Source: Methanopyrus kandleri AV19 (lineage in GTDB: Archaea > JAADCQ01 > Methanopyri > Methanopyrales > Methanopyraceae). Taken from it: DNA of 32,000 bases. The number at the start of each line of letters is the position of its first letter. The stretch's first letter is position 1. Where the stretch lies: NCBI RefSeq assembly GCF_000007185.1, contig NC_003551.1, positions 1,200,001 to 1,232,000 of the forward strand. Direction: 5' to 3'. The notes under the pieces were generated by a model. It saw only the letters and a list, made by a program, of their open reading frames with translations. It did not search any database and had not been told where the DNA came from. The position numbers and the translations under genes are program-made. Positions 3,140-31,194 of the stretch are shown here, one piece after another.

Positions 3140-3412
3140 TTGACCCGCGCGGTGGTGACCGTGATCGGTGCGGATCGACCCGGTATCGTCGCCGGAATCT
3201 CGAGCGTCCTGGCCGAACATAACGCGAACATCGAGGACATCTCCCAGACGGTACTGCGCGACCTGTTCGCGATGGTCATGCTCGTCGACCTCTCCGAGGC
3301 CGACGTGAGCGTGGGTAAGCTGAGGGAGGAGCTCCAAAAGGCCGGCGAAGAGCTCGGTGTCGACGTGATCGTTCAGCATGAAGACGTGTACCGCGCGATG
3401 CACCGGGTGTAG
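3140..3412 (+). CDS. ACT-domain protein (UPF0237 family)
   Basis: 90 aa. VVTVIGADRPGIVAGISSVLAEHNANIEDISQTVLRDLFAMVMLVDL is a classic ACT fold signature. TTG start with GGGGG 9 nt upstream. Paired with the UPF0210 gene, as in many genomes. Confidence 0.85.
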   Translation: MTRAVVTVIGADRPGIVAGISSVLAEHNANIEDISQTVLRDLFAMVMLVDLSEADVSVGKLREELQKAGEELGVDVIVQHEDVYRAMHRV

Positions 3413-3417
3413 GTCCC

Positions 3418-4770: not shown

Positions 4771-4837
4771 CGGCCGATGACGAGCCTGCCCCGGCGGGAT
4801 CGGTGACGAGGATTGGCCTTTCCGAGGCCCGACGGGG

Positions 4838-5845
4838 GTGAACGCGTCGCCGACCGTCGTGGTAATCCCCGGGGACGGGATCGGGCCGGAAGTCATCGAC
4901 GCGGCCCTGAAGGTCGTGCGGGCGGTTCTGGGTGACGAACTCGAGATCGTGGAGGAACAGGCCGGGTACTCGCTGTGGAAGAAGAGGGGAGTCACGATCG
5001 AGGACGAGACGATCGAGCGCTGCCGCGAGGCGGACGCCATGCTCTTCGGCGCGTGCACGACTCCGGAGGACCCGGAGGCCAAGAGTCCCATCGTGACGCT
5101 GCGGAAAGAGCTCGGACTCTACGCCAACGTCCGTCCCGCTCGCTCCTGGCCCGTACCGCGACCTGTCGACACCGAGTTCGACCTGGTGATCGTCCGGGAG
5201 AACACCGAGGGTCTCTACACCGGATGCGAGTGCGAGATCCACGACGGTGTTACCGTCGCCCTGCGTAAGATCTCCGAGGAGGGTACGCGCAGGGTCGCTG
5301 AGGTCGCCTGCGATCTCGCCGAGGAGCGCTCCGGTCGCGTGACGATAGTGCACAAGGCCAACGTGCTGAAGCTCACGTGCGGAACGTTCAAGCGCGTCGC
5401 GGCGGAAACCGTGGAGCGTCGCGGTCTGGAGTGGGACGACGAGTACGTGGACGCGGCGGCGTACAAGCTGGTGCGTGAGCCGGACAGCTTCGACGTGATC
5501 CTCACCTCCAACCTGTTCGGGGACATACTCTCGGACCTGGCGGCGGGTCTGATGGGGAGCCTCGGGCTCGCACCCAGCGCGAACCTGGGGGACGACGCCG
5601 CCCTATTCGAGCCTGTACACGGGTCGGCACCCGACATCGCGGGTAAGGGGATCGCGAACCCGGTGGCGGCGATCCTCTCGGCCGCCATGATGCTGGATCA
5701 CCTCGGGTACGGGGAGGAGGCTCGGATCATCGAGCGTGCCGTCGAGGAGGTGCTGCGCGAGGGCGTGAGGACTCCCGACCTCGGCGGTTCCGCGACCACG
5801 GAGGAGGTGGCCGAGGCGATCGCGGAGCGTGTGGCTACCGGGTGA
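4838..5845 (+). CDS. Isocitrate/3-isopropylmalate/homoisocitrate dehydrogenase family enzyme (LeuB or AksF type)
   Basis: 335 aa. Motifs VVIPGDGIGPEV, VRENTEGLY, NLFGDILSDLAAGLMGSLGLAPSANLG and HGSAPDIAGKGIANP. Substrate specificity cannot be read from sequence alone. Confidence 0.9.
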   Translation: MNASPTVVVIPGDGIGPEVIDAALKVVRAVLGDELEIVEEQAGYSLWKKRGVTIEDETIERCREADAMLFGACTTPEDPEAKSPIVTLRKELGLYANVRPARSWPVPRPVDTEFDLVIVRENTEGLYTGCECEIHDGVTVALRKISEEGTRRVAEVACDLAEERSGRVTIVHKANVLKLTCGTFKRVAAETVERRGLEWDDEYVDAAAYKLVREPDSFDVILTSNLFGDILSDLAAGLMGSLGLAPSANLGDDAALFEPVHGSAPDIAGKGIANPVAAILSAAMMLDHLGYGEEARIIERAVEEVLREGVRTPDLGGSATTEEVAEAIAERVATG

Positions 5846-17055: not shown

Positions 17056-17713
17056 ACCGCTCTTCGAACACGACCTCTTCCACGGCGTCGTCGTACTCTA
17101 TCATCAGCTTCGCGAACCTCTGCTTCGCCCGGGCCCACGCCGGATTGGCGGCGTCGTCGCCTTCCACCCTGACGCGCAGCGTGTTCCCGTCCAGCTCCAG
17201 CTCCGCGTCGACGGATGGCACCATCGTCTCCAGCAGGCCCTCCGCCCGCTCCACCGTGTCCTCCAGTACGTCCACGACTTCCACCTCGTACACCAGCGCT
17301 TTACCCGCCAGCGGGTGGTTGAAGTCGACCCTCACCCGTCCACCGTCGACGCTGAGCACGCGACCGCGCCGGCCGTCGGGACTTACGACGGTATCCCCGG
17401 GCTTCACGCTCCCCCTGAACTCGGACTCACGGTACGTCCGGACCAGCGATGGGTCACGCTCCCCGAAGGCCTTCTCCGGGGGCACCTCGACCTCCAACTC
17501 GTCCCCTGGTTCCGCGCCCACCAGTGCCTCCTCAACCGGTTCCCATACCATTCCGGCTCCGACCACGACCACCACCGGGCCGGACTCGACGTTCAGATCG
17601 TGCTCTTCCGCGACCTCCTTCCGTGTGGTGTCGATTACCTCGTCGGTGTCCTTCACGCGTCCCGTGTAGTGGATCTTCACGAAGTCACCCTTCTCAACGG
17701 CCACGACGATCAA
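17045..17713 (-). CDS. FKBP-type peptidyl-prolyl cis-trans isomerase, long SlyD-like archaeal form with IF insert
   Basis: 222 aa. [12 protein letters not shown]...[22 protein letters not shown] 17713 overlaps the sufBD stop (TTGA). GTG at 17704 has better SD spacing (GAGGGG plus 9 nt) and may be the true start. Confidence 0.88.
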
Positions 17714-18621
17714 CCCCTCAGCATCGCGTTCACGAGTAGTTCGACGGCTTCTTCCTCCGAGAGACCTCGGGACATCAGGGTCTCGACCTCCTTCTTCTCC
17801 ACGGTACCCAGGGCGGCCTCGTGCGTCAACCGGGCGCCTGGGTGGACCACCCGCAGCTTGGGAACGCTGACGACCTTCCCACCTCCTTTAATGATCTCCG
17901 AGCACTCTACGTGACCGCGGGCGCCGTCCGCCTCCCCTGAGATCTCACCGACCAGCTCGACGAACGCGCCGTCGATCGCCGCCGCCTTGAAGTCCAGGAG
18001 GGTCCGCGCGTCCTCCCCGGTCAACCTGACGCTCTCCACTGCCCGGACGCGATCCTCCCCGACGGCCCTCAGCCTCGCCACTCCCTCCATGGTGGCCCGC
18101 TCCTCGACGCGGGCGCCCATCTCCCACTCCAGCTCGCCGACCCGACCCTCCGTGAGCCTGAACTCGGTCACGAAGGACGCCTCGGGCTTCACGGACACGT
18201 CGTACTTGGCCTTCAGCCGTACGCCTCCCTCCCCGTGGTAGTGCACGTCCGTAACCTTCACGTCCGCGCCCTCACCGATCTCGAACTCGGCTTCCATCTC
18301 GTGCACGACGTCGCGCGCTCTCGGGAACGAACAGTGGGACATCAGCTGTATCTTCGCCTCTGGCTCCACGATCAGCCTCGTCACGATCCGCTGGACTCCC
18401 TCCGGCCATGGAACCCCCACGCACATGTGGATGGGTTCGTCGAACTCGTACCCCTCCTTCACCACGAGCTCGGCGACGACGGTGTCGTCTTCCTCCTCGG
18501 CGTTGAGCTCGAGGCCCTCCGCCCCCTGCACGTTCACGACCTTGTTCTCGATGATCACGATCCGCGGCGTGTCCGGACCCGCGTGATAACCCGTAGGCTT
18601 GAACACCTCCTCGGGGCTCAC
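17710..18621 (-). CDS. SufB/SufD-family Fe-S cluster assembly protein (short archaeal form)
   Basis: Beta-helix-like repeats and the C-terminal VSVPKLRVVHPGARLTHEAALGTVEKKEVETLMSRGLSEEEAVELLVNAML, typical of SufBD. I start it at GTG 18621, which forms a GTGA overlap with the sufC stop. The ORF-track start at 18660 would overlap sufC by 43 nt. Confidence 0.85.
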   Translation of the reverse strand: MSPEEVFKPTGYHAGPDTPRIVIIENKVVNVQGAEGLELNAEEEDDTVVAELVVKEGYEFDEPIHMCVGVPWPEGVQRIVTRLIVEPEAKIQLMSHCSFPRARDVVHEMEAEFEIGEGADVKVTDVHYHGEGGVRLKAKYDVSVKPEASFVTEFRLTEGRVGELEWEMGARVEERATMEGVARLRAVGEDRVRAVESVRLTGEDARTLLDFKAAAIDGAFVELVGEISGEADGARGHVECSEIIKGGGKVVSVPKLRVVHPGARLTHEAALGTVEKKEVETLMSRGLSEEEAVELLVNAMLRG

Positions 18622-19331
18622 TCCGCCCCGCACACCAGGCCACCCCCGCACATCAGGCACTTGAGCACCACGTCCTTCGGGTCCCCTTCATCGACGATCT
18701 TACCGTCCATCATCAGGTAGGCCCTGTCACCGACCTGCTCCGCCAGGTCGCGGTTGTGCGTGATCAGCAGCACGGCGGAGCCTTCCTCCCTCATGGTCTC
18801 GATGACCTTCGCCAGATCCTCCATCGACGACATGTCCAGTCCCGCGTCCGGCTCGTCCAAGATCACCAGGTCCGGTCTCATCGCCATCACAGCGGCCAGT
18901 TCGACGCGCTTCCGCTCGCCTCCGCTCAGGTTCTCACCGCACTCGCGGTCCCAGTACTCCTCCGGGTCGAGACCGACGATCCGAAGGCACCGTCGCGCCC
19001 AGTCCTCATCGTCGGTGCAGACGGACAGGTACTCGCCCACGGTCAGGCCCTCGAACCTCGCGGGCTCCTGCCAGGACATTGTCAGTCCCATCCTCGCCCG
19101 CTCGTACATGGGGAGGTCGGTGATATCCCGACCCTTGAACCGGACCTCTCCCTCGACGACCTCGTATCCCGAGCACCCCACGATGGTCTTCGCCAGCGTG
19201 CTCTTCCCCGACCCATTGGGACCGATCAGGTCGACGATCTCGCCCTCGTCGACGGTCAGGGAGGCACCTCGAACGATCTCCGTTCCGTCCTCGGATTCCA
19301 CCCGCAGGTCTTTAACCTCGAGCAGAGCCAA
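18618..19331 (-). CDS. sufC: Fe-S cluster assembly ATPase SufC (ABC type)
   Basis: 237 aa. Walker A GPNGSGKST, signature LSGGERKRVELA, Walker B LVILDEPDAGLD, H-loop ITH. Unusual Cys-rich tail KCLMCGGGLVCGAE. Confidence 0.92.
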   Translation of the reverse strand: MALLEVKDLRVESEDGTEIVRGASLTVDEGEIVDLIGPNGSGKSTLAKTIVGCSGYEVVEGEVRFKGRDITDLPMYERARMGLTMSWQEPARFEGLTVGEYLSVCTDDEDWARRCLRIVGLDPEEYWDRECGENLSGGERKRVELAAVMAMRPDLVILDEPDAGLDMSSMEDLAKVIETMREEGSAVLLITHNRDLAEQVGDRAYLMMDGKIVDEGDPKDVVLKCLMCGGGLVCGAE

Positions 19332-21499: not shown

Positions 21500-22936
21500 T
21501 CATCCCGACCCCGGCATCGGGACGTCCTCGCGCGGGAGCTCGACGACCACGACGGTGGTTTCCCCGTTCATCTCCACGTCCCTGAGGACCTTTTTCACCT
21601 CACCGGGGTCCGGTTTCTCGATCACCTCGACCTCGGCGCCCAGGGACTCGACTATACTCAGAACGTCGGCGTCCAGCCCCATCTTGGCGGCCCTGCCCTC
21701 CTTCTCTTCCATCACCTGCCGGGTGAACCCTAACTCCCCGTTACGGGTGACGAGCACCGCGATCGGGAGGTCCTCCCTGACCGCCGTCTCCAGCTCCTGA
21801 CAGGAGACCATGAACCCACCGTCCCCGGTCAGGGCGAGCGCCATCTCGGGGACCCGGGCCGAGGCTCCCAGCGCCGCCGGGATCGCGAACCCCATGGGAC
21901 AGAACGACCCGGAGTGGATCAACTCGGACGGGGACGACAGCCGGGCGGCCAGCAGCGCGGTGGGGGTGATCTGACCCGAGTCCACCGTGGCCGGCCCGAT
22001 CCAGGCCTTCAGTGCGGCCTTCACGACCCGGTACAGCTCCAGATCGAACTCCGGCGGCTCGCCCGGCTCCGGGTTCCACGGTTCCGTCCTCGGAGGGTCC
22101 TCGAGCAGTGCCTCCACGAAGGCCCGCACGTCGCACTCCACGACCTCGTCCGCGTCCTCCACCCCGAAACCGACCGCGACCGTGGTGGGCCAGTCGATGT
22201 CCGCGCGCGTGCGTCCCGACAACCGGGCCCCTAGGGCGAGCACGACGTCGGCGTCCTCTACCATGTCGTTCGCCCAGCCCCTGAGACCCACGACCCCGGC
22301 GTTACGTGGGTGGTACTCGGGCACCACGCCCCGGCCGCGCATCGTCTCCACGATCGGTGCTTCCAGGACCTCGCACAACCGCTCCACGAGCTCCCCACAC
22401 CGCGCGCGGTAGCAGCCCCGTCCCACCAGGATCGCCACGCGCTTACCCTCCAGGAGCCCGCGGACGCGCTCCACGTCCTCGGGGTCCGGCTCGACGGGCT
22501 CGATTCCCTCGAGCTCCGCGGAGACCCCGTCTGGGTCGAACCCCGGATCGACGTACAGCACGGGCTCTGAGCGCGCTAGGGTCCGTGCGGCTTCCTCCGG
22601 GTCGTCCGTCACCGTGAGCTCCACGCCGTCCGACGCCATCGAGGGTACGAGCGACTGGAACCCGCGCTCGGTGATCTCGCCGGTCGCGCAGAGCACGGGT
22701 ACGCGATCGGCCAGCGCGCACGCCAGCCCCGCCAGCGCGACCGCCACCCCGGGCCCGCAGGTCGCCAGGGCCGCCGCCGGCTCGCCCGAGACCTCGGCGG
22801 CCCCGATCGCCGCGTACACGGCCGCGTCCTCCCGCGTCGTCCGGACTAGCTCGTCCTCCTCCGCGAGCCTCAGGTACGGTCGGGTCACGTCGTCCCCGGG
22901 TACCCCGAACACGGGACGTAACCTGAACGAGGTCAC
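21500..22936 (-). CDS. Thiamine-diphosphate-dependent enzyme, acetolactate synthase large-subunit-like, short form
   Basis: 478 aa from GTG 22936 (SD GGAGGTGG 6 nt upstream; GTGA overlap with the HARP stop). Pyr domain FGVPGDD...TCGPGVAVALAGLACA. ThDP motif LTGDGGFMVSCQELETAVREDLPIAVLVTRNGELG. The ORF-track start at 23029 overlaps the upstream gene by 97 nt and was trimmed. Confidence 0.8.
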   Translation of the reverse strand: MTSFRLRPVFGVPGDDVTRPYLRLAEEDELVRTTREDAAVYAAIGAAEVSGEPAAALATCGPGVAVALAGLACALADRVPVLCATGEITERGFQSLVPSMASDGVELTVTDDPEEAARTLARSEPVLYVDPGFDPDGVSAELEGIEPVEPDPEDVERVRGLLEGKRVAILVGRGCYRARCGELVERLCEVLEAPIVETMRGRGVVPEYHPRNAGVVGLRGWANDMVEDADVVLALGARLSGRTRADIDWPTTVAVGFGVEDADEVVECDVRAFVEALLEDPPRTEPWNPEPGEPPEFDLELYRVVKAALKAWIGPATVDSGQITPTALLAARLSSPSELIHSGSFCPMGFAIPAALGASARVPEMALALTGDGGFMVSCQELETAVREDLPIAVLVTRNGELGFTRQVMEEKEGRAAKMGLDADVLSIVESLGAEVEVIEKPDPGEVKKVLRDVEMNGETTVVVVELPREDVPMPGSG

Positions 22937-23613
22937 CCTTCCACCTCCCTCGACATTCTCAAGTACTCCTCGATCATATCGGGGAAGGAGCACGCGGGCA
23001 TGAAACGGAGCCCGAGCTCCCGGGCCCACCGCTCGATACCCTCGTCGCTCGCCACCACGGCCGCGTCCAGCTCCTTCGCGAGCAGGAGCACGTCCAGGTC
23101 CGGCGCGCTGTCCAGCGTTCCGTGGCGCACCGTCTGACGGTACTTCCGCCGGAAGCGCCGCACCGTCTCCCCGATCACCTCCCGAATGATCCGCTCCTTG
23201 GGCACGTCCGCCTCCTCGCGTAGCATGATCTCGTACGCCTCCAGGGCCGCCTCCCAGATGGCCTTCTCAGCCCGTTTCCTCCCCCGGTCCAGCCGCTCCC
23301 GCATGTCCTTCACGTAGGCCATGAACAACCGCGCCGGGACCTTCACCTCGTACCGGTTCGGCGTCTTCTTCACGATCCACGTATCGATCCTGGACAGCAG
23401 CTCCGGGCACCCGTTCCGCTCGAGGAACCCCTTCAGCTCCCTGTACACCGTGGGGTACGGGATGTAGCAGCTGATGGCCAGCTCCATCCGCGCCCTACCG
23501 ATCAGGTCCAGGAGCCGCGTCACCGCCTCGCAGAGGTCACCGTCCCCGAGCTCGTCCACCACACCCCGGTCGGTGAAGGCCGTGGTATCGAGCACGAACC
23601 GCTGTTTGTACAC
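22933..23613 (-). CDS. HARP: RNA-free (protein-only) RNase P homologue of Aquifex Aq_880, PIN-like, UPF0278 family
   Basis: 226 aa. FVLDTTAFTD (PIN Asp), KKTPNRYEVKVPARLFMAYVKDMRERLDRGRKRAEKAIWEA, and DLDVLLLAKELDAAVVASDEGIERWARELGLRF. These closely parallel archaeal UPF0278 sequences as I remember them. GTG start with GGGGTGA SD 6 nt upstream. Confidence 0.8.
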   Translation of the reverse strand: MYKQRFVLDTTAFTDRGVVDELGDGDLCEAVTRLLDLIGRARMELAISCYIPYPTVYRELKGFLERNGCPELLSRIDTWIVKKTPNRYEVKVPARLFMAYVKDMRERLDRGRKRAEKAIWEAALEAYEIMLREEADVPKERIIREVIGETVRRFRRKYRQTVRHGTLDSAPDLDVLLLAKELDAAVVASDEGIERWARELGLRFMPACSFPDMIEEYLRMSREVEG

Positions 23614-23615
23614 GG

Positions 23616-24314
23616 TCAGTCACCCCGGGCGGGCCGGAGCACCAGACCGGCCCGCGTGATCCTGGCCTCGAACTCGACCAGCTCGCGGCCCAGACGGCAC
23701 CGGGCGACCTTGCCGTCGCGGATCCTGCGGACTCCCAGGAACCTGTACTCGGGGTGGATCCACGGGCGCGTCTCCTCGCCTCCGAACGCGTGGAGTATCC
23801 GGGCGACGGCGTTCACTGGGTTCGGGCGCCCGGCGGGGTCCGGCGGTACGACATCCACGTAGAGGAACTCCCGCGCCGTGTACACCGCCAGGCCCGTCAG
23901 CTCGACGCCGTTCACGCGCTCCGTGGCCGTCTCCAGCTCCAGGACGCCCACGTCGCACTCCTCCAGGGCGCGGGTCACCGCCTTCTCCAGGTCCCGCTTC
24001 GTCCCGGTCGGCTCGAAGTCCAGGAGGCCGTACGGGTCGCGACGGACCAGGCGACGGCGTTCCGGGCGTTCCCCGGTGATCTCCTCCGCCTCCCTCGCGC
24101 CGTGAGGTGTCAGCGTGTACACGCAGGAGGCCGTCCACGGGTCGAACGTGACCGTGAGCACCGGGCGGCCGTCCACGAAGACGCGGTCGGCCCGGACCGG
24201 TCCCCGGATGCGCTCCACGGTCACCTCCCGGTCCGCGATCCCGAGGTCCGAGCCGGTCAGCTCCTCGAGCACCTCCCGGTACTCCTCCAGCTCCCCGCGG
24301 GAAGGTTCCCTCAC
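23616..24314 (-). CDS. Hypothetical protein (ORFan, 232 aa), first gene of the HARP transcription unit
   Basis: GTG-initiated ORF ending 2 nt before the HARP start. Protein-like composition, no motif recognised. A TATA-like CCTTAAAC (minus strand, about 24357-24364) lies about 45 nt upstream. Confidence 0.55.
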   Translation of the reverse strand: MREPSRGELEEYREVLEELTGSDLGIADREVTVERIRGPVRADRVFVDGRPVLTVTFDPWTASCVYTLTPHGAREAEEITGERPERRRLVRRDPYGLLDFEPTGTKRDLEKAVTRALEECDVGVLELETATERVNGVELTGLAVYTAREFLYVDVVPPDPAGRPNPVNAVARILHAFGGEETRPWIHPEYRFLGVRRIRDGKVARCRLGRELVEFEARITRAGLVLRPARGD

Positions 24315-24387
24315 CGGCAGGGTGGTCGTCCCCGTGAGGTCATGCGGGGTTCCCGGGTTTAAGGCCTCAGGGCCGCCGTTACGCGTC

Positions 24388-25167
24388 CTAAAACGATGCC
24401 TCGGACCGGAGCTCCTCGACGATCTCCCGCGCGTGGGATCGGAGCGCCCGGTACAGCGCCCGCGCGTCCCTCCGTAGCGCGGCGTCCAGCACGTCCTCCG
24501 ACTCCGGGATCACCACGTCGAGGTCGTCGCTCGATCCGTCCGCCCGGTTCAGGACGGTGACGGTCGGGAGTCCGAACCTTTCGACCAGGGTCCTGGCACG
24601 CTCGAAGTCGTGACGGGCCGCGGGGCTCGGGGCGGTCACCAGCACCGCGGCGTCGGCGCGGGAGAGGGCCGCGATCACGGGACACCCCAGCCCCGCCGGA
24701 CAGTCGATCACGCACGGACGCTCGGGAACCATCCGGTGGATCACGTGCGCGAGCTCGGGTACCCAGGGCTCGGATCTCGGATGGATCACCTCGAGGTTCA
24801 GGTCCGGGTTACGCGACCTGACGATCTCACCTAGGACCTCCGGCTCGAACTCGATCGCGTCCTCGGGGCAGGCGATCGCGCAGATCCCGCACCCGTCGCA
24901 GGCCGTGGGGTCCTCGACGGCGTCCCACGGGCAGACCTCCGAGCACCTCCCGCACTCGACGCAATCGTCGGTCTTGACCGCGTAGCGGGCCCGGATCTCC
25001 TCGAGCACCTCCTCGACCTCCAGCTCCAGGTACGCGGGTACGTCGGGCTCGGTCACGTCGGCATCCACCAGCGGCACCCCTAGCTCCGCCGCCAGGGCGA
25101 TCGAGAGCATCGTCTTCCCCACGCCGCCCTTCCCTCCCAGGACGGCGACCTTGAGCTCCGGATCCAA
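24388..25167 (-). CDS. MinD/ParA-superfamily P-loop ATPase with inserted 2x[4Fe-4S] ferredoxin domain (paralogue 2)
   Basis: 259 aa. Deviant Walker A LGGKGGVGKT. Insert CVECGRCSEVCP and CDGCGICAIACP. TTG start after GCGGGGGTAT SD. Confidence 0.88.
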   Translation of the reverse strand: MDPELKVAVLGGKGGVGKTMLSIALAAELGVPLVDADVTEPDVPAYLELEVEEVLEEIRARYAVKTDDCVECGRCSEVCPWDAVEDPTACDGCGICAIACPEDAIEFEPEVLGEIVRSRNPDLNLEVIHPRSEPWVPELAHVIHRMVPERPCVIDCPAGLGCPVIAALSRADAAVLVTAPSPAARHDFERARTLVERFGLPTVTVLNRADGSSDDLDVVIPESEDVLDAALRRDARALYRALRSHAREIVEELRSEASF

Positions 25168-25181
25168 CGCGATACCCCCGC

Positions 25182-25970
25182 CTACACGACCTCCTCTAGG
25201 CAGCGCTCTACCGCCTCCCTGAAGACCTCCGATCGGGGTGGGTCGTCTACGGTAGGGGCCTCGACGACCGGATCCCGGACCTCCTCCTCGATCCTCCGCC
25301 TCCAGGAATCCGAGAGGTCGGACCTGTTGATCAGGATGACCACCTCGATCCCGGCGCGGTCGGCGACGCGCATCAGGCGCCTCAGATCGTGGTAAGCCGC
25401 CGGGGTCGGCTGCGTCACGGCGATCGCGGCGTCCGCGGCCTTGAGAACGTCGTACACGTCCTTCCCGGCGCCGGCCGGCGTGTCGAGGATCAGGTCCCTT
25501 TCGTCGTCCGCACCCTCCAGGAGCGCGTGAACGAGGTGTCGGGACCGCCGGTCACCCACGTCGAGCGATCCCGACGTCAGCGTCGCCCCGGTCTCGGACA
25601 CCCGGTACCTCCGTACCTCACCGATCCGAACGCGGTCGTACGCCAGGGCGCCGTTGGGGCAGCTCTCGATGCACAACCCGCAGCCGTGGCACAGGTCGGG
25701 ATCCAGGTCCCACGAGCGCCCGACCACGAGGGCGCCCGGCGCGCAGACCCGCGCGCACGTCCCGCAGAGATCGCACGCGTCTTCGTCCTCAAGCTTCGGA
25801 CACGGGATGTACACGTCGGACCGCTCGACCTCTTCGCAGTCGAGGTAAAGATGGAGGTTGGGGGTGGTGACGTCCAGGTCGAGGGCGTCCCAGCCCAGGA
25901 TCCGGTGGACGTGAACGGCGACCGTGGTCTTACCGACACCTCCTTTGCCGCCCGTGACGGCCAGCCACAT
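25182..25970 (-). CDS. MinD/ParA-superfamily P-loop ATPase with inserted 2x[4Fe-4S] ferredoxin domain (paralogue 1)
   Basis: 262 aa. TGGKGGVGKTT. Insert CDLCGTCARVCAP and CHGCGLCIESCP. ATG start after GAGGAGTGATC SD. Confidence 0.88.
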   Translation of the reverse strand: MWLAVTGGKGGVGKTTVAVHVHRILGWDALDLDVTTPNLHLYLDCEEVERSDVYIPCPKLEDEDACDLCGTCARVCAPGALVVGRSWDLDPDLCHGCGLCIESCPNGALAYDRVRIGEVRRYRVSETGATLTSGSLDVGDRRSRHLVHALLEGADDERDLILDTPAGAGKDVYDVLKAADAAIAVTQPTPAAYHDLRRLMRVADRAGIEVVILINRSDLSDSWRRRIEEEVRDPVVEAPTVDDPPRSEVFREAVERCLEEVV

Positions 25971-25977
25971 CCGGGGA

Positions 25978-26307
25978 TCACTCCTCGGGTAACTCGCCGC
26001 GGGCGGCCTTCAGGGCCGCCTCTTCCGGATCGGTCCCGGGCTCGGCGACGTAGGCCTTGATCCCCTGGGCTTTGAGACCTTGAAGCGCGTTGGGACCGTA
26101 ACGCGCGGCGACCGTGGCTTCGACGTTCAGTTCCGTGAGGACCGTGAGGATCTGCCTACCGGCCCCGCGCGGGAGGTTCGCGACGGGGTTACTCGTGGAC
26201 TCGACGAGCTCGACGTCGTCATCCTGCACCTCGTACACGCGGATCTCAGGAGCTCGGGCGAACCGGGAGGACACCCCGTCACCTTCCACCATCACGGCCA
26301 CGCGCAA
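25978..26307 (-). CDS. NifX/NifB-C-terminal-like (dinitrogenase FeMo-cofactor-binding fold) small protein
   Basis: 109 aa. MRVAVMVEGDGVSSRFARAPEIRVYEV...ATVAARYGPNALQGLKAQGIKAYV matches the NifX-like family pattern. The TTG start directly abuts the upstream TAA (TAATTG), with GAGGGGGT SD 10 nt upstream. Confidence 0.8.
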   Translation of the reverse strand: MRVAVMVEGDGVSSRFARAPEIRVYEVQDDDVELVESTSNPVANLPRGAGRQILTVLTELNVEATVAARYGPNALQGLKAQGIKAYVAEPGTDPEEAALKAARGELPEE

Positions 26308-26547
26308 TTACCTGGGACCCCCTCGTCCCGGACCACCGCGACCTCCGCGGCCGGGACCGCCGCGACCCATACCGCGTCCGAGACCGGCGTAGCTTCCCCA
26401 GGTACCCGGCCCGGGGTTCAGCCGGTGGATGAACACGGCTGGGGCTCCACAGTTCGGACAGCTCGAGGGTTTGGGGGCGCCGTACGGTACCTCGATGATC
26501 TCGCCGCACCGGGAGCACCGGAAGACCTTCACGTCGCGTCGGATCAA
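26308..26547 (-). CDS. Zinc-ribbon protein with C-terminal RGG/GPGRGG low-complexity tail
   Basis: 79 aa. CSRC-x15-CPNC, then GLGRGMGRGGPGRGGRGGPGRGGPR. TTG start preceded by a perfect GAGGGGGTGAT SD with a 5-nt spacer, 6 nt after the ferredoxin stop. Confidence 0.7.
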   Translation of the reverse strand: MIRRDVKVFRCSRCGEIIEVPYGAPKPSSCPNCGAPAVFIHRLNPGPGTWGSYAGLGRGMGRGGPGRGGRGGPGRGGPR

Positions 26548-26553
26548 ACCCGA

Positions 26554-26736
26554 TCACCCCCTCTTGGGCTCCATCCGGAGAGCACCCGTGGGACACACCC
26601 GGGCGCACGATCCGCAGGCGCGACACTTGGAGGCGTCTACCTCGACGTACCCGACGGAGACGAGGAGCGCACCGGTGGGACAGGCTCGCATGCACTCACC
26701 GCATCCCTCGCACTCGGAGGCGTCGTGCACGAACAC
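26554..26736 (-). CDS. 2x[4Fe-4S] ferredoxin (about 60 aa)
   Basis: CEGCGECMRACP and CRACGSCARVCP. The 159-aa ORF-track form runs through the upstream gene as R/G junk. The first in-frame start after that gene's stop is GTG 26736 (or GTG 26730). No strong SD, so the start is approximate. Confidence 0.8.
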   Translation of the reverse strand: MFVHDASECEGCGECMRACPTGALLVSVGYVEVDASKCRACGSCARVCPTGALRMEPKRG

Positions 26737-26759
26737 CGCCTGAGGTGTCTCGACGCGGG

Positions 26760-27179
26760 TTATTCCTTCTCCTCCATCTCTCGCAGCCGCTTCTCTAGTT
26801 CCTCGAGCTTCTTCCGCAGCTCCTCCAGCTCTTCCGTCTTCCCTCCTTCCGGACCCTCCGACACGCTCTCCGCGAGCTTCTCTACGGCCTCGGCTAAGTC
26901 CTCCCCGAAGGTCTCGCGTATCGCTTTCAGTACCTCCTTCCGGGTCTCCTCGTCCGCTGTTGCGAGCCACCACCAACCACCGCCCCAACCGGGACCGCCG
27001 CGCCAACCTCCTCTCCACCAGCCACCGGGCCACGCCGGTGCCGGCGCGCCTTCTTCACCCAGTACCTGCCAGGCGTGCTTTATCTCTCCCGTTTCCGTGT
27101 CCTCGTAGAACGCGTGTGGACCTAGCCCGCACCTGCACGGGCCGATGTACCTATATCGCCGGCTCGCCATGCCCTTCAC
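26760..27179 (-). CDS. DUF5320-like protein: Cys-containing N-terminus, Trp/Gly-rich core, C-terminal coiled coil
   Basis: 139 aa. RYRYIGPCRCGLGPHAF, then WPGGWWRGGWRGGPGWGGGWWW (8 Trp in 22 residues), then EELEELRKKLEELEKRLREMEEKE. Start is GTG 27179 (AGGAGGA upstream) or ATG 27170 (GGGGGTGA upstream). The family call is tentative, from architecture only. Confidence 0.6.
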   Translation of the reverse strand: MKGMASRRYRYIGPCRCGLGPHAFYEDTETGEIKHAWQVLGEEGAPAPAWPGGWWRGGWRGGPGWGGGWWWLATADEETRKEVLKAIRETFGEDLAEAVEKLAESVSEGPEGGKTEELEELRKKLEELEKRLREMEEKE

Positions 27180-27183
27180 CCCC

Positions 27184-27219
27184 TTAGGTCCTCCTAACGC
27201 CGCGATTAGGGAAACCTAA
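27184..27219. promoter_or_regulatory. Two tandem 14-bp palindromes TTAGG-N4-CCTAA (27184-27197 and 27206-27219), centres 22 bp apart; putative operator pair
   Basis: Read directly: cccTTAGGtcctCCTAAcgccgcgaTTAGGgaaaCCTAActc. They lie between the shared TATA-like box (27224-27233) and the first gene of the minus-strand six-gene operon. Confidence 0.65.
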
Positions 27220-27223
27220 CTCG

Positions 27224-27233
27224 GTAATAAAGC
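27224..27233. promoter_or_regulatory. Shared AT-rich TATA-like element GTAATAAAGC in the 72-bp divergent intergenic region
   Basis: The only AT-rich block between the gene starts at 27179 (-) and 27252 (+). It is about 24 nt upstream of the CBS GTG (predicting a leaderless mRNA) and about 45-55 nt upstream of the minus-strand start. Confidence 0.5.
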
Positions 27234-27251
27234 TTTGGGGATGGGAAAGCC

Positions 27252-27620
27252 GTGCCCACGGTCCGGGACGCGATGACCGAGGACGTCGTGGTCGTGGGGC
27301 CGGACGAGCCCCTGGAGCGCGTGCTCCGGACGTTCGCGTCCGAGTCGATCCACGGGGTGCCCGTCGTCGAGGGTGGCCGGTTGATCGGGATCGTGACGTC
27401 GGTCGACGTCGTCCGCGCCCTGGCCTCGGGCGAGTGGAGGGAGCTGACCGCGGGCGATGTCACCCGGAAGGCCGTGACCGTGGACCCAGACGAGGATCTC
27501 GAGACCGCGCTGGACCTGATGGCGGCCGTCGGTGAGGACCGCGCGGTGGTGGTCGAGGACGGGGAGATCGTCGGCGTAGTCACCGTACTGGACGCCATCC
27601 GCGTGCTGTTAGGGGAGTGA
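27252..27620 (+). CDS. CBS-domain pair protein
   Basis: 122 aa. VRDAMTEDVVVVGPDEPLERVLRTFASESIHGVPVVEGGRLIGIVTSVDVV plus a second CBS repeat, VTRKAVTVDPDEDLETALDLMAAVGEDRAVVVEDGEIVGVVTVLD. Confidence 0.9.
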   Translation: MPTVRDAMTEDVVVVGPDEPLERVLRTFASESIHGVPVVEGGRLIGIVTSVDVVRALASGEWRELTAGDVTRKAVTVDPDEDLETALDLMAAVGEDRAVVVEDGEIVGVVTVLDAIRVLLGE

Positions 27621-27624
27621 GCCG

Positions 27625-28965
27625 TTGAAACGGTTGTTCTATCCCGAGGCCGTCGCCGTGGTCGGCGCCTCCCGAGACCCCTCGAAGGTAGGTCACGGGA
27701 TCTTCCGGAACCTGCTGCGCGACTTCGACGGACCGGTGTACCCCGTGAACCCCCACGCCGACGAGCTCCTGGGTCGACGCTGCTACCCGTCGCTCCTCGA
27801 GCTCCCCGAGCGGGTCGACCTGGCGGTGATCGCGGTCCCCGCCCGCGTGGTTCCCGAGGTGGTGCGCGAGGCCGGGGAGGCCGGCGTACCGTACTGCGTG
27901 GTGATCTCCGCGGGCTTCTCCGAGGCGGGCAACGAGGACCTCGAGCGGGAGCTGGTCAGGACCGCCCGGAAAGTCGGCGTCCGGCTGGTGGGTCCCAACT
28001 GCCTCGGGATCATCAACGCGAGGATCGGGCTCAACGCGTCCTTCGCGGCGGAGTCCCCTCCCCCGGGCAACATCGCGTTTGTGACGCAGAGCGGGGCCCT
28101 CGCGACATCGGTCATCGACTGGTTCTCCTCGGGAGACGTCGGGACGGTCGGCGTGGGGTTCAGCAAGTTCGTGAGCCTGGGCAACGCGGCCGACCTGGAC
28201 TTCCCCGACTTCCTCGAGTACCTGGCGGAGGACGACGATACCGACGTGGTCGTGCTGTACCTGGAGGGCGTCAAGGACGGGCCGCGGTTCCTGGACGCGC
28301 TGTCCGAGTGTGCCGGGCGTAAGCCGGTGATCGTGCTCAAGGGCGGCAGGACGGAGGCCGGGGCCGAGGCGGTCGGCACCCACACCGGTTCACTGGCGGG
28401 CTCGGGAGAGGTCTACGAGGGGCTCGTCGAGGGAGAGGGTGGTATCTTCGTGGGAGGGTTCGAGGAGGCGTTCGACGCGGCGAAGCTGCTGGCTAAGGCC
28501 GGTCCCCCGACGTCGGACCGCGTGCTGATCGTGACGAACGCCGGGGGCGGCGGGATCCTGGCGACGGACGCCCTGCACGAGCTGGGCTTCGAGCTCCCGG
28601 AGCCCGCGGGGGACCCCTCGGTGCTGCCACCGGAGGCGGCGACGGGTAACCCCGTCGACGTGCTGGGGGACGCGGACGCGGAGCGTTACCGGGTCGCGCT
28701 GGAGGAGTTCGCGGATCCCGATCGGTACGGGGCCGTGATGGTCATCCTCACGCCGCAGAGCGTGACGGAGCCCGTGAAGACGGCACGGGCGGTCGTGGAG
28801 TTCGTCGAGGAGTTCCCGGGACCGGTGATCGGGGTCTGGATGGGCCGTCACTCCGTGGCCCTGGGGATCAGGGTTCTAGAGGAGGGCGGGGTGCCGACGT
28901 TCCCCTCGCCCGAGCGCGCCGCGAGGGCGCTGTACCACGCGGCCAGGTGGGCGGAAGTATTATAA
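27625..28965 (+). CDS. ADP-forming acyl/acetyl-CoA synthetase alpha-type subunit (CoA-binding plus succinyl-CoA-ligase-like flavodoxin domains)
   Basis: 446 aa. PEAVAVVGASRDPSKVGHGIFRNLL, VGPNCLGIIN, FVTQSGAL and GTHTGSLAG (phospho-His loop). No ATP-grasp beta subunit adjacent. Confidence 0.85.
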   Translation: MKRLFYPEAVAVVGASRDPSKVGHGIFRNLLRDFDGPVYPVNPHADELLGRRCYPSLLELPERVDLAVIAVPARVVPEVVREAGEAGVPYCVVISAGFSEAGNEDLERELVRTARKVGVRLVGPNCLGIINARIGLNASFAAESPPPGNIAFVTQSGALATSVIDWFSSGDVGTVGVGFSKFVSLGNAADLDFPDFLEYLAEDDDTDVVVLYLEGVKDGPRFLDALSECAGRKPVIVLKGGRTEAGAEAVGTHTGSLAGSGEVYEGLVEGEGGIFVGGFEEAFDAAKLLAKAGPPTSDRVLIVTNAGGGGILATDALHELGFELPEPAGDPSVLPPEAATGNPVDVLGDADAERYRVALEEFADPDRYGAVMVILTPQSVTEPVKTARAVVEFVEEFPGPVIGVWMGRHSVALGIRVLEEGGVPTFPSPERAARALYHAARWAEVL

Positions 28966-28967: not shown

Positions 28968-28982
28968 TTAGGCGCACCTAAC
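28967..28982. promoter_or_regulatory. Palindrome GTTAGG-cgca-CCTAAC immediately downstream of the feoA TATA box; putative repressor operator with the same motif as 27184-27219
   Basis: Read directly: tataatGTTAGGcgcaCCTAACaatt. Its position between TATA and the expected transcription start is the classical archaeal repressor site. Confidence 0.6.
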
Positions 28983-28997
28983 AATTGAGTACCGACG

Positions 28998-29237
28998 GTG
29001 GGTGGTGCCGTGAAGACACTGCTCGAGGTGCCAGAGGGGAGGACGGTCCGCGTCGTCGACGTGGCCGCCGGTAAGGGAGCGGCCGCCATGCTGTACGAGC
29101 TCGGGATCCGGCCCGGGGCACGCGTCGAGGTCGTGAAGTCCGGTCCGGGTCCCGTCATCGTGCGCGTCGGCGGCGCGAAGTACTCCCTGGGTCGCGGCCT
29201 CGCGGCCAAGGTGATCGTCGAGGAGGAACAGGGGTGA
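28998..29237 (+). CDS. feoA: Ferrous iron transport protein A (FeoA, SH3-like)
   Basis: 79 aa. LLEVPEGRTVRVVDVAAGKGAAAMLYELGIRPGARVEVVKSGPGPVIVRVGGAKYSLGRGLAAKVIV. An alternative GTG lies at 29010. Confidence 0.88.
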   Translation: MGGAVKTLLEVPEGRTVRVVDVAAGKGAAAMLYELGIRPGARVEVVKSGPGPVIVRVGGAKYSLGRGLAAKVIVEEEQG

Positions 29238-29241
29238 GGCG

Positions 29242-31194
29242 ATGAGGACGGTAGCGCTGGCGGGACCACCGAACGTGGGTAAGACCACCATAATGTCCCG
29301 GGTCTGCCGCGCGAACCTGGAGGTCGGGAACTGGCCCGGGGTCACCGTCGAGAGGAAGACCTGCACGTACGAGTTCCGGGGGGATAGGTACCGTCTCATC
29401 GACCTCCCGGGCACGTACAGCCTCACGGCTTTCTCCGAGGACCAGCGCGTCGCCCGCGACTACCTGCTCGGCCGGACCGACGGGAAGCCGGACGCCGTGG
29501 TCGTCGTCGGGGACGCGCTCAACGTGGCCGGGGCCGTGCGCGTGTTCCTCGAGATCGCGGAGCTCGGGTACCATCACGTCATCCTGGCCGTGAACATGCT
29601 TGACGAGGCGGAGCGCGCGGGCATCGGCATCGACCTGAAACGACTGGAGCGCGAGCTGGGAGTGCCCGTCGTCGGTATATCCGCGAAGCGGGGATACGGG
29701 ATCGAGCACCTCAAGCGCGCGATCGCGGACGTCGTGCAGGGAAGGGTCGAGCCGAACCCCAGGTCCCCCCGGTACCCTCGCGAGGTCGAGAGGGCCGTGA
29801 AGGAGCTCGCCCCGGAGGTCGGTGAAAGGCTCCCGGAGTACCCCCCGCGTTGGGCCGTCCTCAAGCTCCTCGAGGGGGACCCCGAACTCCTCCGGGAACT
29901 CGAAAAACGCGATCCCGAGCTTCTAAAACGGGTTAAAGAGGTCAAGAAACGTATCGCCGAGCGGACCTCCCACGACCCGGCCGTCCTGATCTCGCAGGCC
30001 CGGGACGAACTCGCCACGCGGATCGCCCGGAACTGCGTGACGGGTCGGCCTTCGCTCTCCCGTCAGGACCGGATCGACCGCGTCCTCACGCACCCGGTGT
30101 GGGGCACGCTCATCGCCCTGGGCGTGCTCGGGACGGTGTTCGCGTCGGCGTTCCTCCTGGGCGACCCGCTCTCCGAGCTCGTGGAGGGGGCGTTCGAACA
30201 CCTCGCCGGGTTCGCCCGAAGTCTGCCCGCGCCATGGTCCGACCTACTCGCCGAGGGCGTGATCCCCGGCGTGGGAACCGTGCTCGCCATGTACCCGTAC
30301 GTGTTCGTCATGCTACTACTCCTCACCGTGCTCGAGGATGCCGGCTACACGGCCCGCCTCGCCGCCTTAGCGTCCGGCCTGCTCGCCCGCTTCGGTCTCC
30401 ACGGCAAGACCGTGTTCCCCGCCGTCCTGTCCCTCTCCTGCAACGTACCCGCGATCACGGCGAGCCGGATCATCGAGGACGAACGGGCCCGCCTGCTGAC
30501 CGCGATCGTCGTGCCGCTGATCCCCTGCGGTGCCCGTCTCGAGGTGATCACGTTCCTCACGGCGAAGCTACCGGACCCCTGGCGCGTACCGGCCGCCGTT
30601 TCCATCTACGTCGTCGCCCTCTCGCTGTTCGTGGCCACGTCCTACATCCTACACCGCCTCCTCTTCGGCAAGCCGGAGCCCCACCGCGGGCACGTGATCG
30701 AGCTCCCACGCCTCCGTAAGCCGCACCTACGCACGGTGCTCACCGTCACCTGGCTGCGCTCGAACGAGTTCCTCCAGAAGGCCGGCACGATCATCCTGGC
30801 GGCCTCGGTCCTGCTCTGGGTCGCCACCCGATACCCGGAGCCGCTGGGCACCGGCGGGAGCGCGATCGAGCTCGTCGGTAAGGCCCTCGAGCCGGTGACG
30901 GTGGCCCTCCTGGGGCTGGACTGGAAGGGGGCCGTGGCGCTCCTCAACGGGATCGTCGCGAAGGAGATCGTCATCTCCACCCTCGCCATGCTGCACGCGC
31001 ACCTCACGCCCGAGAACGCCTACGTGCTCACCCTGGTGAGCGCGCTGTACATCCCGTGTGCCGCCACGATAGGTGCGGTCTACTCGGAGACCGGTTCCAT
31101 GAGGTACGCCGCACTCTCCGTCGCGGCGAACCTGTCCCTCGCGACCCTGGTCGGCGCGGCCGTGCACCACGCGCTCGTGGCACTCGGCGGCTGA
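29242..31194 (+). CDS. feoB: Ferrous iron transporter FeoB (N-terminal G domain plus polytopic membrane domain)
   Basis: 650 aa. G1 GPPNVGKTT, DLPGTYSL, NMLD. Multiple TM segments in the C-terminal two-thirds. Confidence 0.94.
   Translation: MRTVALAGPPNVGKTTIMSRVCRANLEVGNWPGVTVERKTCTYEFRGDRYRLIDLPGTYSLTAFSEDQRVARDYLLGRTDGKPDAVVVVGDALNVAGAVRVFLEIAELGYHHVILAVNMLDEAERAGIGIDLKRLERELGVPVVGISAKRGYGIEHLKRAIADVVQGRVEPNPRSPRYPREVERAVKELAPEVGERLPEYPPRWAVLKLLEGDPELLRELEKRDPELLKRVKEVKKRIAERTSHDPAVLISQARDELATRIARNCVTGRPSLSRQDRIDRVLTHPVWGTLIALGVLGTVFASAFLLGDPLSELVEGAFEHLAGFARSLPAPWSDLLAEGVIPGVGTVLAMYPYVFVMLLLLTVLEDAGYTARLAALASGLLARFGLHGKTVFPAVLSLSCNVPAITASRIIEDERARLLTAIVVPLIPCGARLEVITFLTAKLPDPWRVPAAVSIYVVALSLFVATSYILHRLLFGKPEPHRGHVIELPRLRKPHLRTVLTVTWLRSNEFLQKAGTIILAASVLLWVATRYPEPLGTGGSAIELVGKALEPVTVALLGLDWKGAVALLNGIVAKEIVISTLAMLHAHLTPENAYVLTLVSALYIPCAATIGAVYSETGSMRYAALSVAANLSLATLVGAAVHHALVALGG

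Follow-up and report, generated by a model that had tools for sequence, protein, structure and literature searches.

A candidate iron-regulated operon of Methanopyrus kandleri with the core of the ORP gene cluster

A stretch of 32,000 nt from the genome of Methanopyrus kandleri AV19 (NC_003551.1, 1,200,001-1,232,000; referred to as the window, in whose positions all coordinates are given) harbors six head-to-tail open reading frames (ORFs) on the minus strand, which together span 24388-27179. In operon order they encode a small DUF5320-related protein (gene 1), a ferredoxin, a ribbon protein with an RGG tail (gene 3), a NifX-like protein and two MinD-type ATPases with inserted ferredoxin domains (ATPase A and ATPase B). 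Judged by the sequences of its core genes, this operon is the archaeal (Methanopyrus) form of the known ORP (orange protein) gene cluster. Together with feoAB and a gene-1 homologue of a related genome it shares a predicted DtxR-box control, which points to a role in iron-sulfur handling. With moderate confidence the operon can be regarded as a single-transcript, iron-repressed module of the ORP/IssA type that would handle metal sulfides at the expense of ATP. The ORP-type core was already known, whereas the link of DtxR-type boxes to feoAB and gene 1, the protein family with the motif YIGPCRCGxGPHAFY and the interpretation as a split IssA are new.

Relationship to the ORP gene cluster

The distribution of the module was assessed by a species-level genome scan with an alignment of the ATPases. 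The scan yielded 80 loci, spread over ten archaeal lineages and a great diversity of anaerobic bacteria, in which features were mapped by our own hidden Markov models (HMMs) and motif searches; counts refer to 79 of these loci. At least one MinD-ferredoxin ATPase was located in 78 loci and at least two in 66, with a tandem arrangement in 59. A NifX-like gene is present on the same strand in 71 loci, lies within 400 bp of an ATPase gene in 48 and directly upstream of the ATPase genes in 37, and the order NifX-like/ATPase/ATPase recurs in bacteria and archaea. DUF5320 proteins with the N-terminal motif MPxxDGTGPxGxGPxTGRG, scored by a regular expression for the motif and an HMM built from motif-bearing sequences, were detected in 38 loci (the motif search alone gave 46 ORFs in 36 loci), small four-Cys ribbon proteins with RGG sequences in 19 and small 2x[4Fe-4S] ferredoxins in 11. 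These counts indicate that the NifX-like/ATPase/ATPase core is a very widely conserved module, whereas the accessory small proteins vary. Fusions of Mrp and NifX domains occur in 13 of the 79 loci and thus are not a universal feature of ORP-like loci. In anaerobes, NifX-like, MinD-ferredoxin and DUF5320 genes thus do occur together, as had been proposed from the window alone (the original prediction). An iterative DUF5320 HMM seeded with the Desulfovibrio protein was dropped, as it drifted to low-complexity and NifX-containing ORFs (210 matches).

A Nitratidesulfovibrio locus (L001) in the survey is laid out as published for the orp operons of D. vulgaris. One operon encodes a DUF5320 protein, which is Orp5 by position, followed by two MinD-ferredoxin ATPases; the divergent operon encodes a 143-amino-acid protein, a NifX-like protein and an Mrp-NifX fusion, and the gene for a PAS/sigma-54 activator lies between the two. 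ATPase A shares 31% identity with the shorter ATPase of this locus, which is Orp3-like by position (E 3e-28), and for ATPase B an E value of 6e-25 was obtained. The D. vulgaris ORP complex is reported to be composed of Orp3 and Orp4 (MinD plus 2x[4Fe-4S]), Orp5, Orp8 (NifX-like) and Orp9 (PMC6345978). Orp3 co-purifies with Orp4 and Orp8 and displays an Fe-S spectrum, and all three receive clusters from MrpORP (Orp9) (PMC6345978). The original prediction had described the ensemble as one with no assigned function and, as far as known, without a demonstrated biochemical role; in light of the ORP cluster and the co-purification of Orp3, Orp4 and Orp8 this was overstated.

The Methanopyrus operon and the Desulfovibrio cluster have in common two paralogous MinD-type 2x[4Fe-4S] ATPases, a single-domain NifX-like protein and their restriction to anaerobes; gene 1 is a candidate counterpart of the small Gly/Arg-rich DUF5320-type protein. 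They differ in layout and control, as the D. vulgaris cluster consists of two divergent sigma-54 operons under a redox-sensing activator, whereas the Methanopyrus genes form one operon that is predicted to be controlled by DtxR-type iron boxes. The latter contains no Orp7 and additionally encodes the ribbon/RGG protein and the ferredoxin. The DUF5320 protein of the ORP cluster carries the MPxxDGTGP motif, whereas gene 1 has a CRC...H motif and a Trp-rich patch. Finally, a MinD-like basic amphipathic C-terminal helix has been reported for Orp3 and Orp4, whereas the C-termini of the Methanopyrus ATPases are acidic.

An archaeal locus of a member of the Thermoprotei (L065, 3837-7843) starts with genes for an 89-amino-acid protein consisting nearly entirely of Trp, Gly, Pro and Tyr and for a Trp/Pro-rich coiled-coil protein. 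These are followed by genes for a NifX-like protein, two ATPases, a ribbon/RGG protein and a DUF134/PRK04217 helix-turn-helix protein, and by feoA.

Transcription signals and iron boxes

The six genes are separated by gaps of 23, 6, 0, 7 and 14 nt, which agrees with the coordinates and spacing given in the original prediction. Shine-Dalgarno-like G-rich sites precede five of them (AGGGGGTG, AGAGGGGGTGA, GAGGGGGT, GAGGAGTGATCC and GGCGGGGGTAT); when all six gene starts were inspected, none was found upstream of the ferredoxin gene, the exception that had been claimed before. Within 23500-27400 of the minus strand, the only archaeal TATA-like box is TTTATTA at 27225-27231, the operon promoter, which is conserved in the sister strain Methanopyrus sp. 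L090. The only T-run of this region on the same strand, TTTT at 24390-24393, is located at the stop codon of ATPase B and is possibly a weak archaeal terminator. One TATA-like element and one T-run fit a single transcription unit, and we infer that the six genes are cotranscribed.

The promoter contains exact copies of the 14-bp IdeR/DtxR-type palindrome TTAGGNNNNCCTAA, here termed iron box. Three exact copies occur in the window, whereas 0.09 are expected, and none of 100 shuffles reached three. Iron box 1 (TTAGGGAAACCTAA, 27206-27219; the boxes carry no strand assignment) is positioned 4 nt downstream of the TATA box, and iron box 2 (TTAGGTCCTCCTAA, 27184-27197) overlaps the 5' untranslated region immediately before the site where ribosomes would bind on gene 1. 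Iron box 3 (TTAGGCGCACCTAA, 28968-28981) follows directly on TTATAAT, the TATA-like element of feoA, and lies upstream of feoA (28998-29237) and feoB (29242-31194). An operator shared with feoAB and a tie to iron, as originally proposed, were hence recovered. To our knowledge, an ORP-type operon has not been described before as a target of IdeR/DtxR boxes.

The iron boxes are retained in related loci. In the sister strain all three are kept, with unchanged half-sites, changed spacers and the same arrangement at feoA. In a Methanopyrus-related metagenome-assembled genome (L003) and in locus L004, a single box lies at the position equivalent to iron box 2, 15-18 nt ahead of the first gene of the cluster. 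In the Thermoprotei locus, feoA is located just downstream of the ORP-like cluster and is preceded by a tandem pair of boxes, one of which is TTAGGTTAGCCTAA. An unlinked gene-1 homologue (L089) has its own exact box 27 nt upstream. In total, 875 kb of related loci contain 11 exact boxes (8 non-redundant, approximately 0.8 expected), and each of the 11 precedes feoA, a gene-1 homologue or an ORP-like cluster by no more than 30 nt. Boxes with one mismatch occur at the level of shuffled sequence (16 observed, 20.6 expected), and therefore exact boxes alone were used.

The sequence TTAGGNNNNCCTAA is letter for letter the redefined 14-bp IdeR/DtxR consensus proposed by Marcos-Torres et al. (PMC8464063). 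The archaeal DtxR-family protein TroR represses iron uptake under iron-replete conditions, and its motif from chromatin immunoprecipitation sequencing resembles TTAGGNNNNCCTAA (PMC10783522). With the bacterial IdeR/DtxR boxes and with TroR the window shares tandem copies and the siting at the promoter of an iron-uptake operon. The TroR motif of Haloferax volcanii has been reported approximately 100 nt upstream of start codons, whereas the Methanopyrus box is located directly downstream of the TATA box. This placement predicts repression by an iron-loaded regulator. A DtxR-family repressor would shut the operon when Fe(II) is plentiful and would free the operon and feoAB when iron is scarce.

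The ATPases, the NifX-like protein and the accessory proteins

ATPase A (25182-25970) and ATPase B (24388-25167), both on the minus strand and both recognised as CbiA/ParA plus Fer4, are MinD/ParA-type proteins with a deviant Walker A motif and a 2x[4Fe-4S] insert after switch I. They share 32% identity and possess GGKGGVGKT with the signature lysine, the DxD of switch I, Walker B and eight ferredoxin Cys residues that are invariant in the family alignment. Their description as paralogues with ferredoxin inserts was correct. The conserved Cys of the GxGCPV sequence after Walker B is kept in ATPase B (GLGCPV), whereas PAGAGKDV replaces this region in ATPase A and its orthologues P0005 and P0008. 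Both C-termini (...EELRSEASF and ...ERCLEEVV) are net acidic. An AlphaFold2 model of ATPase B (predicted local distance difference test, pLDDT, 88.5; predicted template modelling score 0.85) has its best matches in the PDB among archaeal MinD, FleN/FlhG, ATPase-type HypB, ApbC, Cfd1 and Soj. The fold alone thus cannot separate positioning ATPases from metallochaperones. The NCBIfam model minD_arch scores 48 bits, below its cutoff of 202. No solved structure with a ferredoxin insert in this ATPase architecture was found in sequence and fold searches of the PDB.

Like Mrp/NBP35/ApbC and ATPase-type HypB, the two proteins have the deviant Walker A motif, a MinD-like fold and a presumed ATP-dependent dimer. 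They differ from these metallochaperones in that the clusters are placed in an inserted ferredoxin domain and that a CxxC bridging motif is absent; after Walker B, a single conserved Cys is present in ATPase B and none in ATPase A. MrpORP, which is related to the Mrp/NBP35/ApbC metallochaperones, transfers Fe-S clusters.

The NifX-like protein (25978-26307, minus strand, 109 amino acids) belongs to PF02579 Nitro_FeMo-Co/IPR003731 (E 6e-19). It is acidic (isoelectric point, pI, 4.6), contains neither Cys nor His residues and has no tail. Among PDB sequences it matches TM1290 (3.5e-10), MTH1175 (4.1e-10) and, over the full length, the D. gigas ORP 2wfb (8e-4), and its pairwise BLASTP match to the Orp8-like protein of the Nitratidesulfovibrio locus is weak (E 0.005) and uninformative. 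On these sequence grounds, it is the counterpart of Orp8 and a putative counterpart of the tail-less proteins of the IssA clade. The NCBIfam model nifB matches far under its cutoff (E 0.0047), and no nif genes are among the annotated ORFs of the window; the original prediction had noted the lack of nitrogenase structural genes nearby. With no nif genes in the window ORFs and no Cys/His ligands, the operon, by its sequence, is not a nitrogenase accessory set.

IssA of P. furiosus consists of a NifX-like domain modelled on MTH1175 and a disordered cationic tail that binds anionic thioferrate chains; Trp, Gly and Arg are its key residues, and in vitro the protein can rebuild the cluster of ferredoxin (PMC5524996). 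MTH1175 itself was placed in the IssA clade by Vaccaro et al., and some members of this clade are tail-less (PMC5524996). An IssA-like iron-sulfur storage in methanogens has been discussed for NifX-like proteins of the clade (PMC5524996, PMC8351635, PMC8516115), and Johnson et al., whose survey included three Methanopyrales genomes, report an IssA homologue and neither ferritin nor bacterioferritin for each of them. The operon and IssA share an IPR003731 domain, putatively of the MTH1175 type, cationic disordered sequence rich in Trp, Gly and Arg and a link to iron status. The fused C-terminal tail, the defining feature of IssA, is missing from the window protein, and IssA has not been described with ATPase partners, whereas the window protein is encoded beside two. 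In the operon the IssA-like Trp/Gly/Arg patches are found in trans, on genes 1 and 3 and not on the NifX-like protein. Five other ORP-like loci (L008, L016, L018, L019 and L051) encode fusions of a NifX-like domain, a G/R-rich tail and a DUF5320-type coiled coil. As single polypeptides these fusions are Rosetta-stone evidence that the modules work together.

Gene 1 (26760-27179, minus strand) encodes 136 amino acids from an ATG at 27170 or 139 from a GTG at 27179; the ATG, which is the NCBI start and has the better spaced Shine-Dalgarno site 6 nt upstream, is most likely used. The protein carries the YIGPCRCGxGPHAFY...H motif and, with WPGGWWRGGWRGGPGWGGGWWW, a Trp/Gly/Arg patch of cationic character (pI 12); its C-terminal coiled coil is acidic. 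A search of 1.84 billion representatives retrieved a family of 122 clusters (E<=1e-3), all of them short. In the family alignment, 17 invariant columns spell Y.YIGPCRCG.GPHAFY, a His residue further on is nearly invariant, and the Trp/Arg/Gly patch and the C-terminal coiled coil are shared. The originally proposed assignments of Fer4, NifX-like, CbiA/ParA with Fer4 and CxxC-x15-CxxC/RGG were recovered for the respective products, whereas that of DUF5320 to gene 1 itself stayed below threshold (PF17253, E 0.028, 16 bits, cutoff 27). As 42 of 78 family members match PF17253, the term DUF5320-like is fair for the family. The motif MPxxDGTGPxGxGPxTGRG is absent from gene 1, our own DUF5320 HMM aligns with its G-rich and coiled-coil part only (10 bits), and a BLASTP comparison with the DUF5320 protein of the Nitratidesulfovibrio locus revealed no similarity and is uninformative. 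An AlphaFold2 model of moderate confidence (pLDDT 70) consists of a small beta-sheet, the disordered patch and then helices, and had no Foldseek match in the PDB (best E 1.0). A literature search on DUF5320 retrieved nothing functional.

Some members of the gene-1 family are encoded elsewhere. Genome GCA_054046225.1 has a gene-1 homologue outside the ORP-like cluster. In the genome of L004 the homologue P0062 (L088/L089, 5960-6342) lies far from the ORP-like cluster, beside the gene for a V4R-domain protein. A bacterial locus (L086, 278-1678) contains family member P0068 after a plain CbiA/ParA ATPase without ferredoxin insert and a 61-amino-acid ORF; a low-molecular-weight phosphatase/ArsC-like gene follows. 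This is a second, independent pairing of the gene-1 family with a MinD-type ATPase.

Gene 3 (26308-26547, minus strand) encodes 79 amino acids with a four-Cys ribbon (CxxC-x15-CxxC) and a cationic RGG tail (GLGRGMGRGGPGRGGRGGPGRGGPR, pI 12). In our own Pfam scan, zinc-ribbon models remained below threshold, DUF7130 was below cutoff (5e-6) and MJ0401 (PF27353) was not among the matches. Precomputed matches to PF27353 exist, however, for the 90%-identity orthologue P0078 and for the orthologues in L003, L004 and L090, and through these orthologues gene 3 probably belongs to the MJ0401 family. The order of ribbon and then RGG was also found in one locus each of the Thermoprotei and of bacteria. 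In the majority of the remaining loci that encode such proteins, mainly bacterial, the order is reversed, and the DUF5320 N-motif is followed by RGG and then the ribbon. These reversed proteins have approximately 60-90 amino acids and a C-terminal CxCPxCG...CPxCG ribbon; examples are L013 5035-5265, L036 5769-5999 and L037 2535-2771, besides about 15 other loci. Orp5 of the Nitratidesulfovibrio locus, the D. vulgaris homologue of Dde_3197 with its reported [2Fe-2S] binding, has no ribbon.

The ferredoxin (26554-26736, minus strand, GTG start) has 60 amino acids with 8 Cys residues in a 2x[4Fe-4S] arrangement (Fer4, E 1.3e-18). Its ORF is intact in AV19. The 201-nt counterpart in the sister strain (L090 4223-4423) is a pseudogene with indels and an in-frame stop in an otherwise intact operon, and the three iron boxes are likewise intact; in the more distant cluster of L003 the gene is absent. 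This indicates that the ferredoxin is a lineage-specific accessory, so that its proposed place in the ensemble holds for AV19 and not as that of a conserved member. A 159-amino-acid ORF in an alternative frame (26554-27033, overlapping gene 1) was rejected as a longer ferredoxin, since the extension is Arg/Gly-rich out-of-frame sequence. In the sister strain the frame of this ORF is open without the ferredoxin, which also counts against a longer protein.

Proposed function and neighbouring genes

We favor a function in which the two ATPases would form an ATP-dependent heterodimer, like other ATPases of the SIMIBI class (MinD/ParA/NifH group), and would dock on the acidic, ligand-free NifX-like protein. 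The latter would hold an anionic, non-covalently bound metal-sulfide species, helped by the cationic patches in the gene-1 protein and by the RGG tail that gene 3 contributes. This species would be akin to the thioferrate that IssA binds as a chain, or to the linear sulfide of Mo and Cu in the orange protein; either of these is an anionic metal sulfide in the form of a linear chain. With ATP and with electrons delivered via the four clusters of the ferredoxin domains, and in AV19 also via the extra ferredoxin, the machinery would build or, more likely, mobilise this species for Fe-S supply.

Proteome data of a methanogen are consistent with a response of the module to iron. The authors of a study of M. 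voltae grown on pyrite read the cells as sensing Fe(II) limitation (PMC8516115, Data Set S1). The fold changes were 211 for FeoA1, 14.7 for FeoB1 and 12 for DtxR, 2.3 and 4.3 for the IssA-like proteins Mvol_0689 and Mvol_0693, and 5.0 and 2.6 for the CbiA-family Fe-S proteins Mvol_0691 and Mvol_0692 (PMC8516115). Just the two IssA-like proteins are discussed by the authors (PMC8516115). Based on consecutive locus tags and annotations, which fit the NifX-like/ATPase/ATPase/NifX-like pattern common in the locus survey, Mvol_0689-0693 are probably the same module as the ORP-like clusters.

Several observations weigh against an iron-repressed metal-sulfide module. A DtxR gene is missing from the window, and a search of all fetched loci matched one in two bacterial loci only. 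Neither MrpORP (Orp9) nor OrpR is encoded in or beside the Methanopyrus operon. The ferredoxin is dispensable in relatives, gene 1 is marginal as a DUF5320 protein, and ATPase A does not have the conserved interface Cys, which renders a symmetric bridging metal site unlikely. In M. voltae, the ferredoxin insert of Mvol_0691 and Mvol_0692 is deduced from the annotation and their listing on the 'FeS binding' sheet. In P. furiosus, sulfide induces IssA under iron-sufficient conditions, whereas the operon is predicted to be derepressed at low iron. Storage as such is therefore a misfit, and mobilisation is speculative. For M. kandleri, the single transcript, the binding of a repressor, the formation of a complex and the nature of the bound species are predictions. 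Furthermore, the ORP authors suggest a role of the complex in cell division (PMC8359166), on the basis of the morphological defects that follow loss of OrpR and of the polar localisation of MrpORP (PMC6345978, PMC8359166).

It is, in our estimate, quite unlikely that this proposal for Desulfovibrio extends to Methanopyrus, with the MinD-like ATPases placing a septum or another structure and the small coiled-coil and low-complexity proteins acting as adaptors. Archaeal MinD and FleN/FlhG are the best folds for ATPase B, the sub-threshold match to minD_arch points in the same direction, and positioning systems typically have coiled-coil partners. However, metallochaperones (ATPase-type HypB, ApbC and Cfd1) fit the fold equally well, the C-termini are acidic instead of ending, as Orp3 and Orp4 reportedly do, in a basic amphipathic helix for membrane binding, and no MinC/MinE-type partners are encoded in the operon. 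Positioning would also leave aside the eight invariant ferredoxin Cys residues of each ATPase, the cofactor-binding NifX-like protein as obligatory neighbour, the promoter iron boxes in common with feoAB and the response of the M. voltae genes to the iron source. For Methanopyrus, the ATP-driven metallocluster machine of the original prediction is thus a reasonable hypothesis and is favored over cell division. A further use of the same ATPases would be that of an ATP-coupled low-potential electron donor, in which the heterodimer acts like the Fe protein of nitrogenase or like radical dehydratase activators, hydrolysing ATP to drive electrons from its [4Fe-4S] clusters into a partner enzyme, and the NifX-like protein is a mere adaptor. 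Membership of the SIMIBI class, which includes NifH, the position of the ferredoxin insert right after switch I, a site sensing the nucleotide state, and the extra ferredoxin gene are in line with this function. We nevertheless consider it the least probable of the explanations, as no conserved acceptor enzyme is found beside the cluster in the 79 loci, the clusters are located in a separate inserted domain and not at the dimer interface as in NifH, and the partners found universally are small proteins, either NifX-like or of low complexity.

The identity of the metal bears on a third explanation, the handling of Mo/W thiometallates, in which the NifX-like protein binds a linear Mo(W)-Cu sulfide and the ATPases serve the homeostasis of Mo/W (or Cu) or delivery to tungsten/molybdenum enzymes, for example formylmethanofuran dehydrogenase. 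The orange protein with its [S2MoS2CuS2MoS2]3- cluster is the founding member of the gene cluster, the Methanopyrus protein aligns with 2wfb over the full length (E 8e-4), and the absence of Cys and His is compatible with non-covalent binding of an anion. Still, ORP is a more distant match of the NifX-like protein than MTH1175 and TM1290 are, the operator is of the iron-box type common to feoAB and not a Mo/W signal, and no gene for a Mo/W transporter or cofactor lies near the operon. The Mo-Cu cluster can reportedly form in vitro from added thiomolybdate and several metals, hence its physiological status is uncertain. Taken together, a dedicated Mo/W function appears unlikely. An ABC transporter encoded next to the cluster of L003 was considered as a tungstate/molybdate carrier and rejected, since NCBIfam identifies it as the Pst phosphate system; it therefore offers no support for Mo/W.

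An iron-repressed metal-sulfide module of the ORP/IssA type would matter beyond Methanopyrus. Few gene clusters of strict anaerobes are conserved as widely as the NifX-like/MinD-ferredoxin module, whose Desulfovibrio representative, the ORP complex, has been studied for fifteen years. The operon appears to join three literatures, namely those on ORP, on IssA and thioferrate storage and on the iron proteomics of methanogens. The exact DtxR-type boxes at feoAB and an unlinked partner gene are a regulatory clue that makes the function directly testable in tractable methanogens. If the operon indeed supplies Fe-S clusters, this would close a gap in explaining how organisms whose only system is SufBC meet their very large Fe-S demand. 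A doubtful but far-reaching generalisation is that the module is a widespread ATP-driven machine of strict anaerobes that makes or dissolves a non-covalently held, thioferrate-like linear iron-sulfide polymer, a sulfide-based supply route switched on at iron shortage, so that 'orange protein' and IssA would be one system. Such a machine would complement minimal SufBC in ferritin-less organisms such as Methanopyrus.

Genes for a SufC-like ABC ATPase (18618-19331) and a SufB/D core protein (17710-18660) are located on the minus strand approximately 5 kb downstream of the operon. Thus feoAB, the ORP-like operon and a minimal SufCB system all lie inside 14 kb. No iron box was found near the suf genes (17710-19331).

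Directly downstream of the operon, 23616-24314 of the minus strand encodes a 232-amino-acid protein with no Pfam or NCBIfam match, into which read-through from the operon is possible; no TATA-like element lies between the two. In Methanopyrus sp. L090 a gene for 218 amino acids, again with no Pfam match, occupies the equivalent position, and nothing comparable is found downstream of the cluster in L003. The gene is followed by those for an RNA-ligase-partner/PIN_5 protein (22933-23613) and a thiamine pyrophosphate enzyme. On the other side, 27252-28965 of the plus strand, divergent from the operon, encodes a CBS-pair protein and a CoA-binding protein similar to ADP-forming acetyl-CoA synthetase. 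The TATA-like element and iron box of feoA start at the stop codon of the latter gene, and the order is the same in the sister strain.

In L003, two PP-loop ATPase genes (3268-4967) with weak LarE/TtuA-like (sulfur-transferase) similarity are located directly upstream of the iron box and the cluster. In L004, a free-standing LAGLIDADG endonuclease ORF (4936-5337) lies just upstream of the cluster, and the same genome has an EF-2 gene (L088/L089, 1753-5055) with an intein containing a LAGLIDADG domain.

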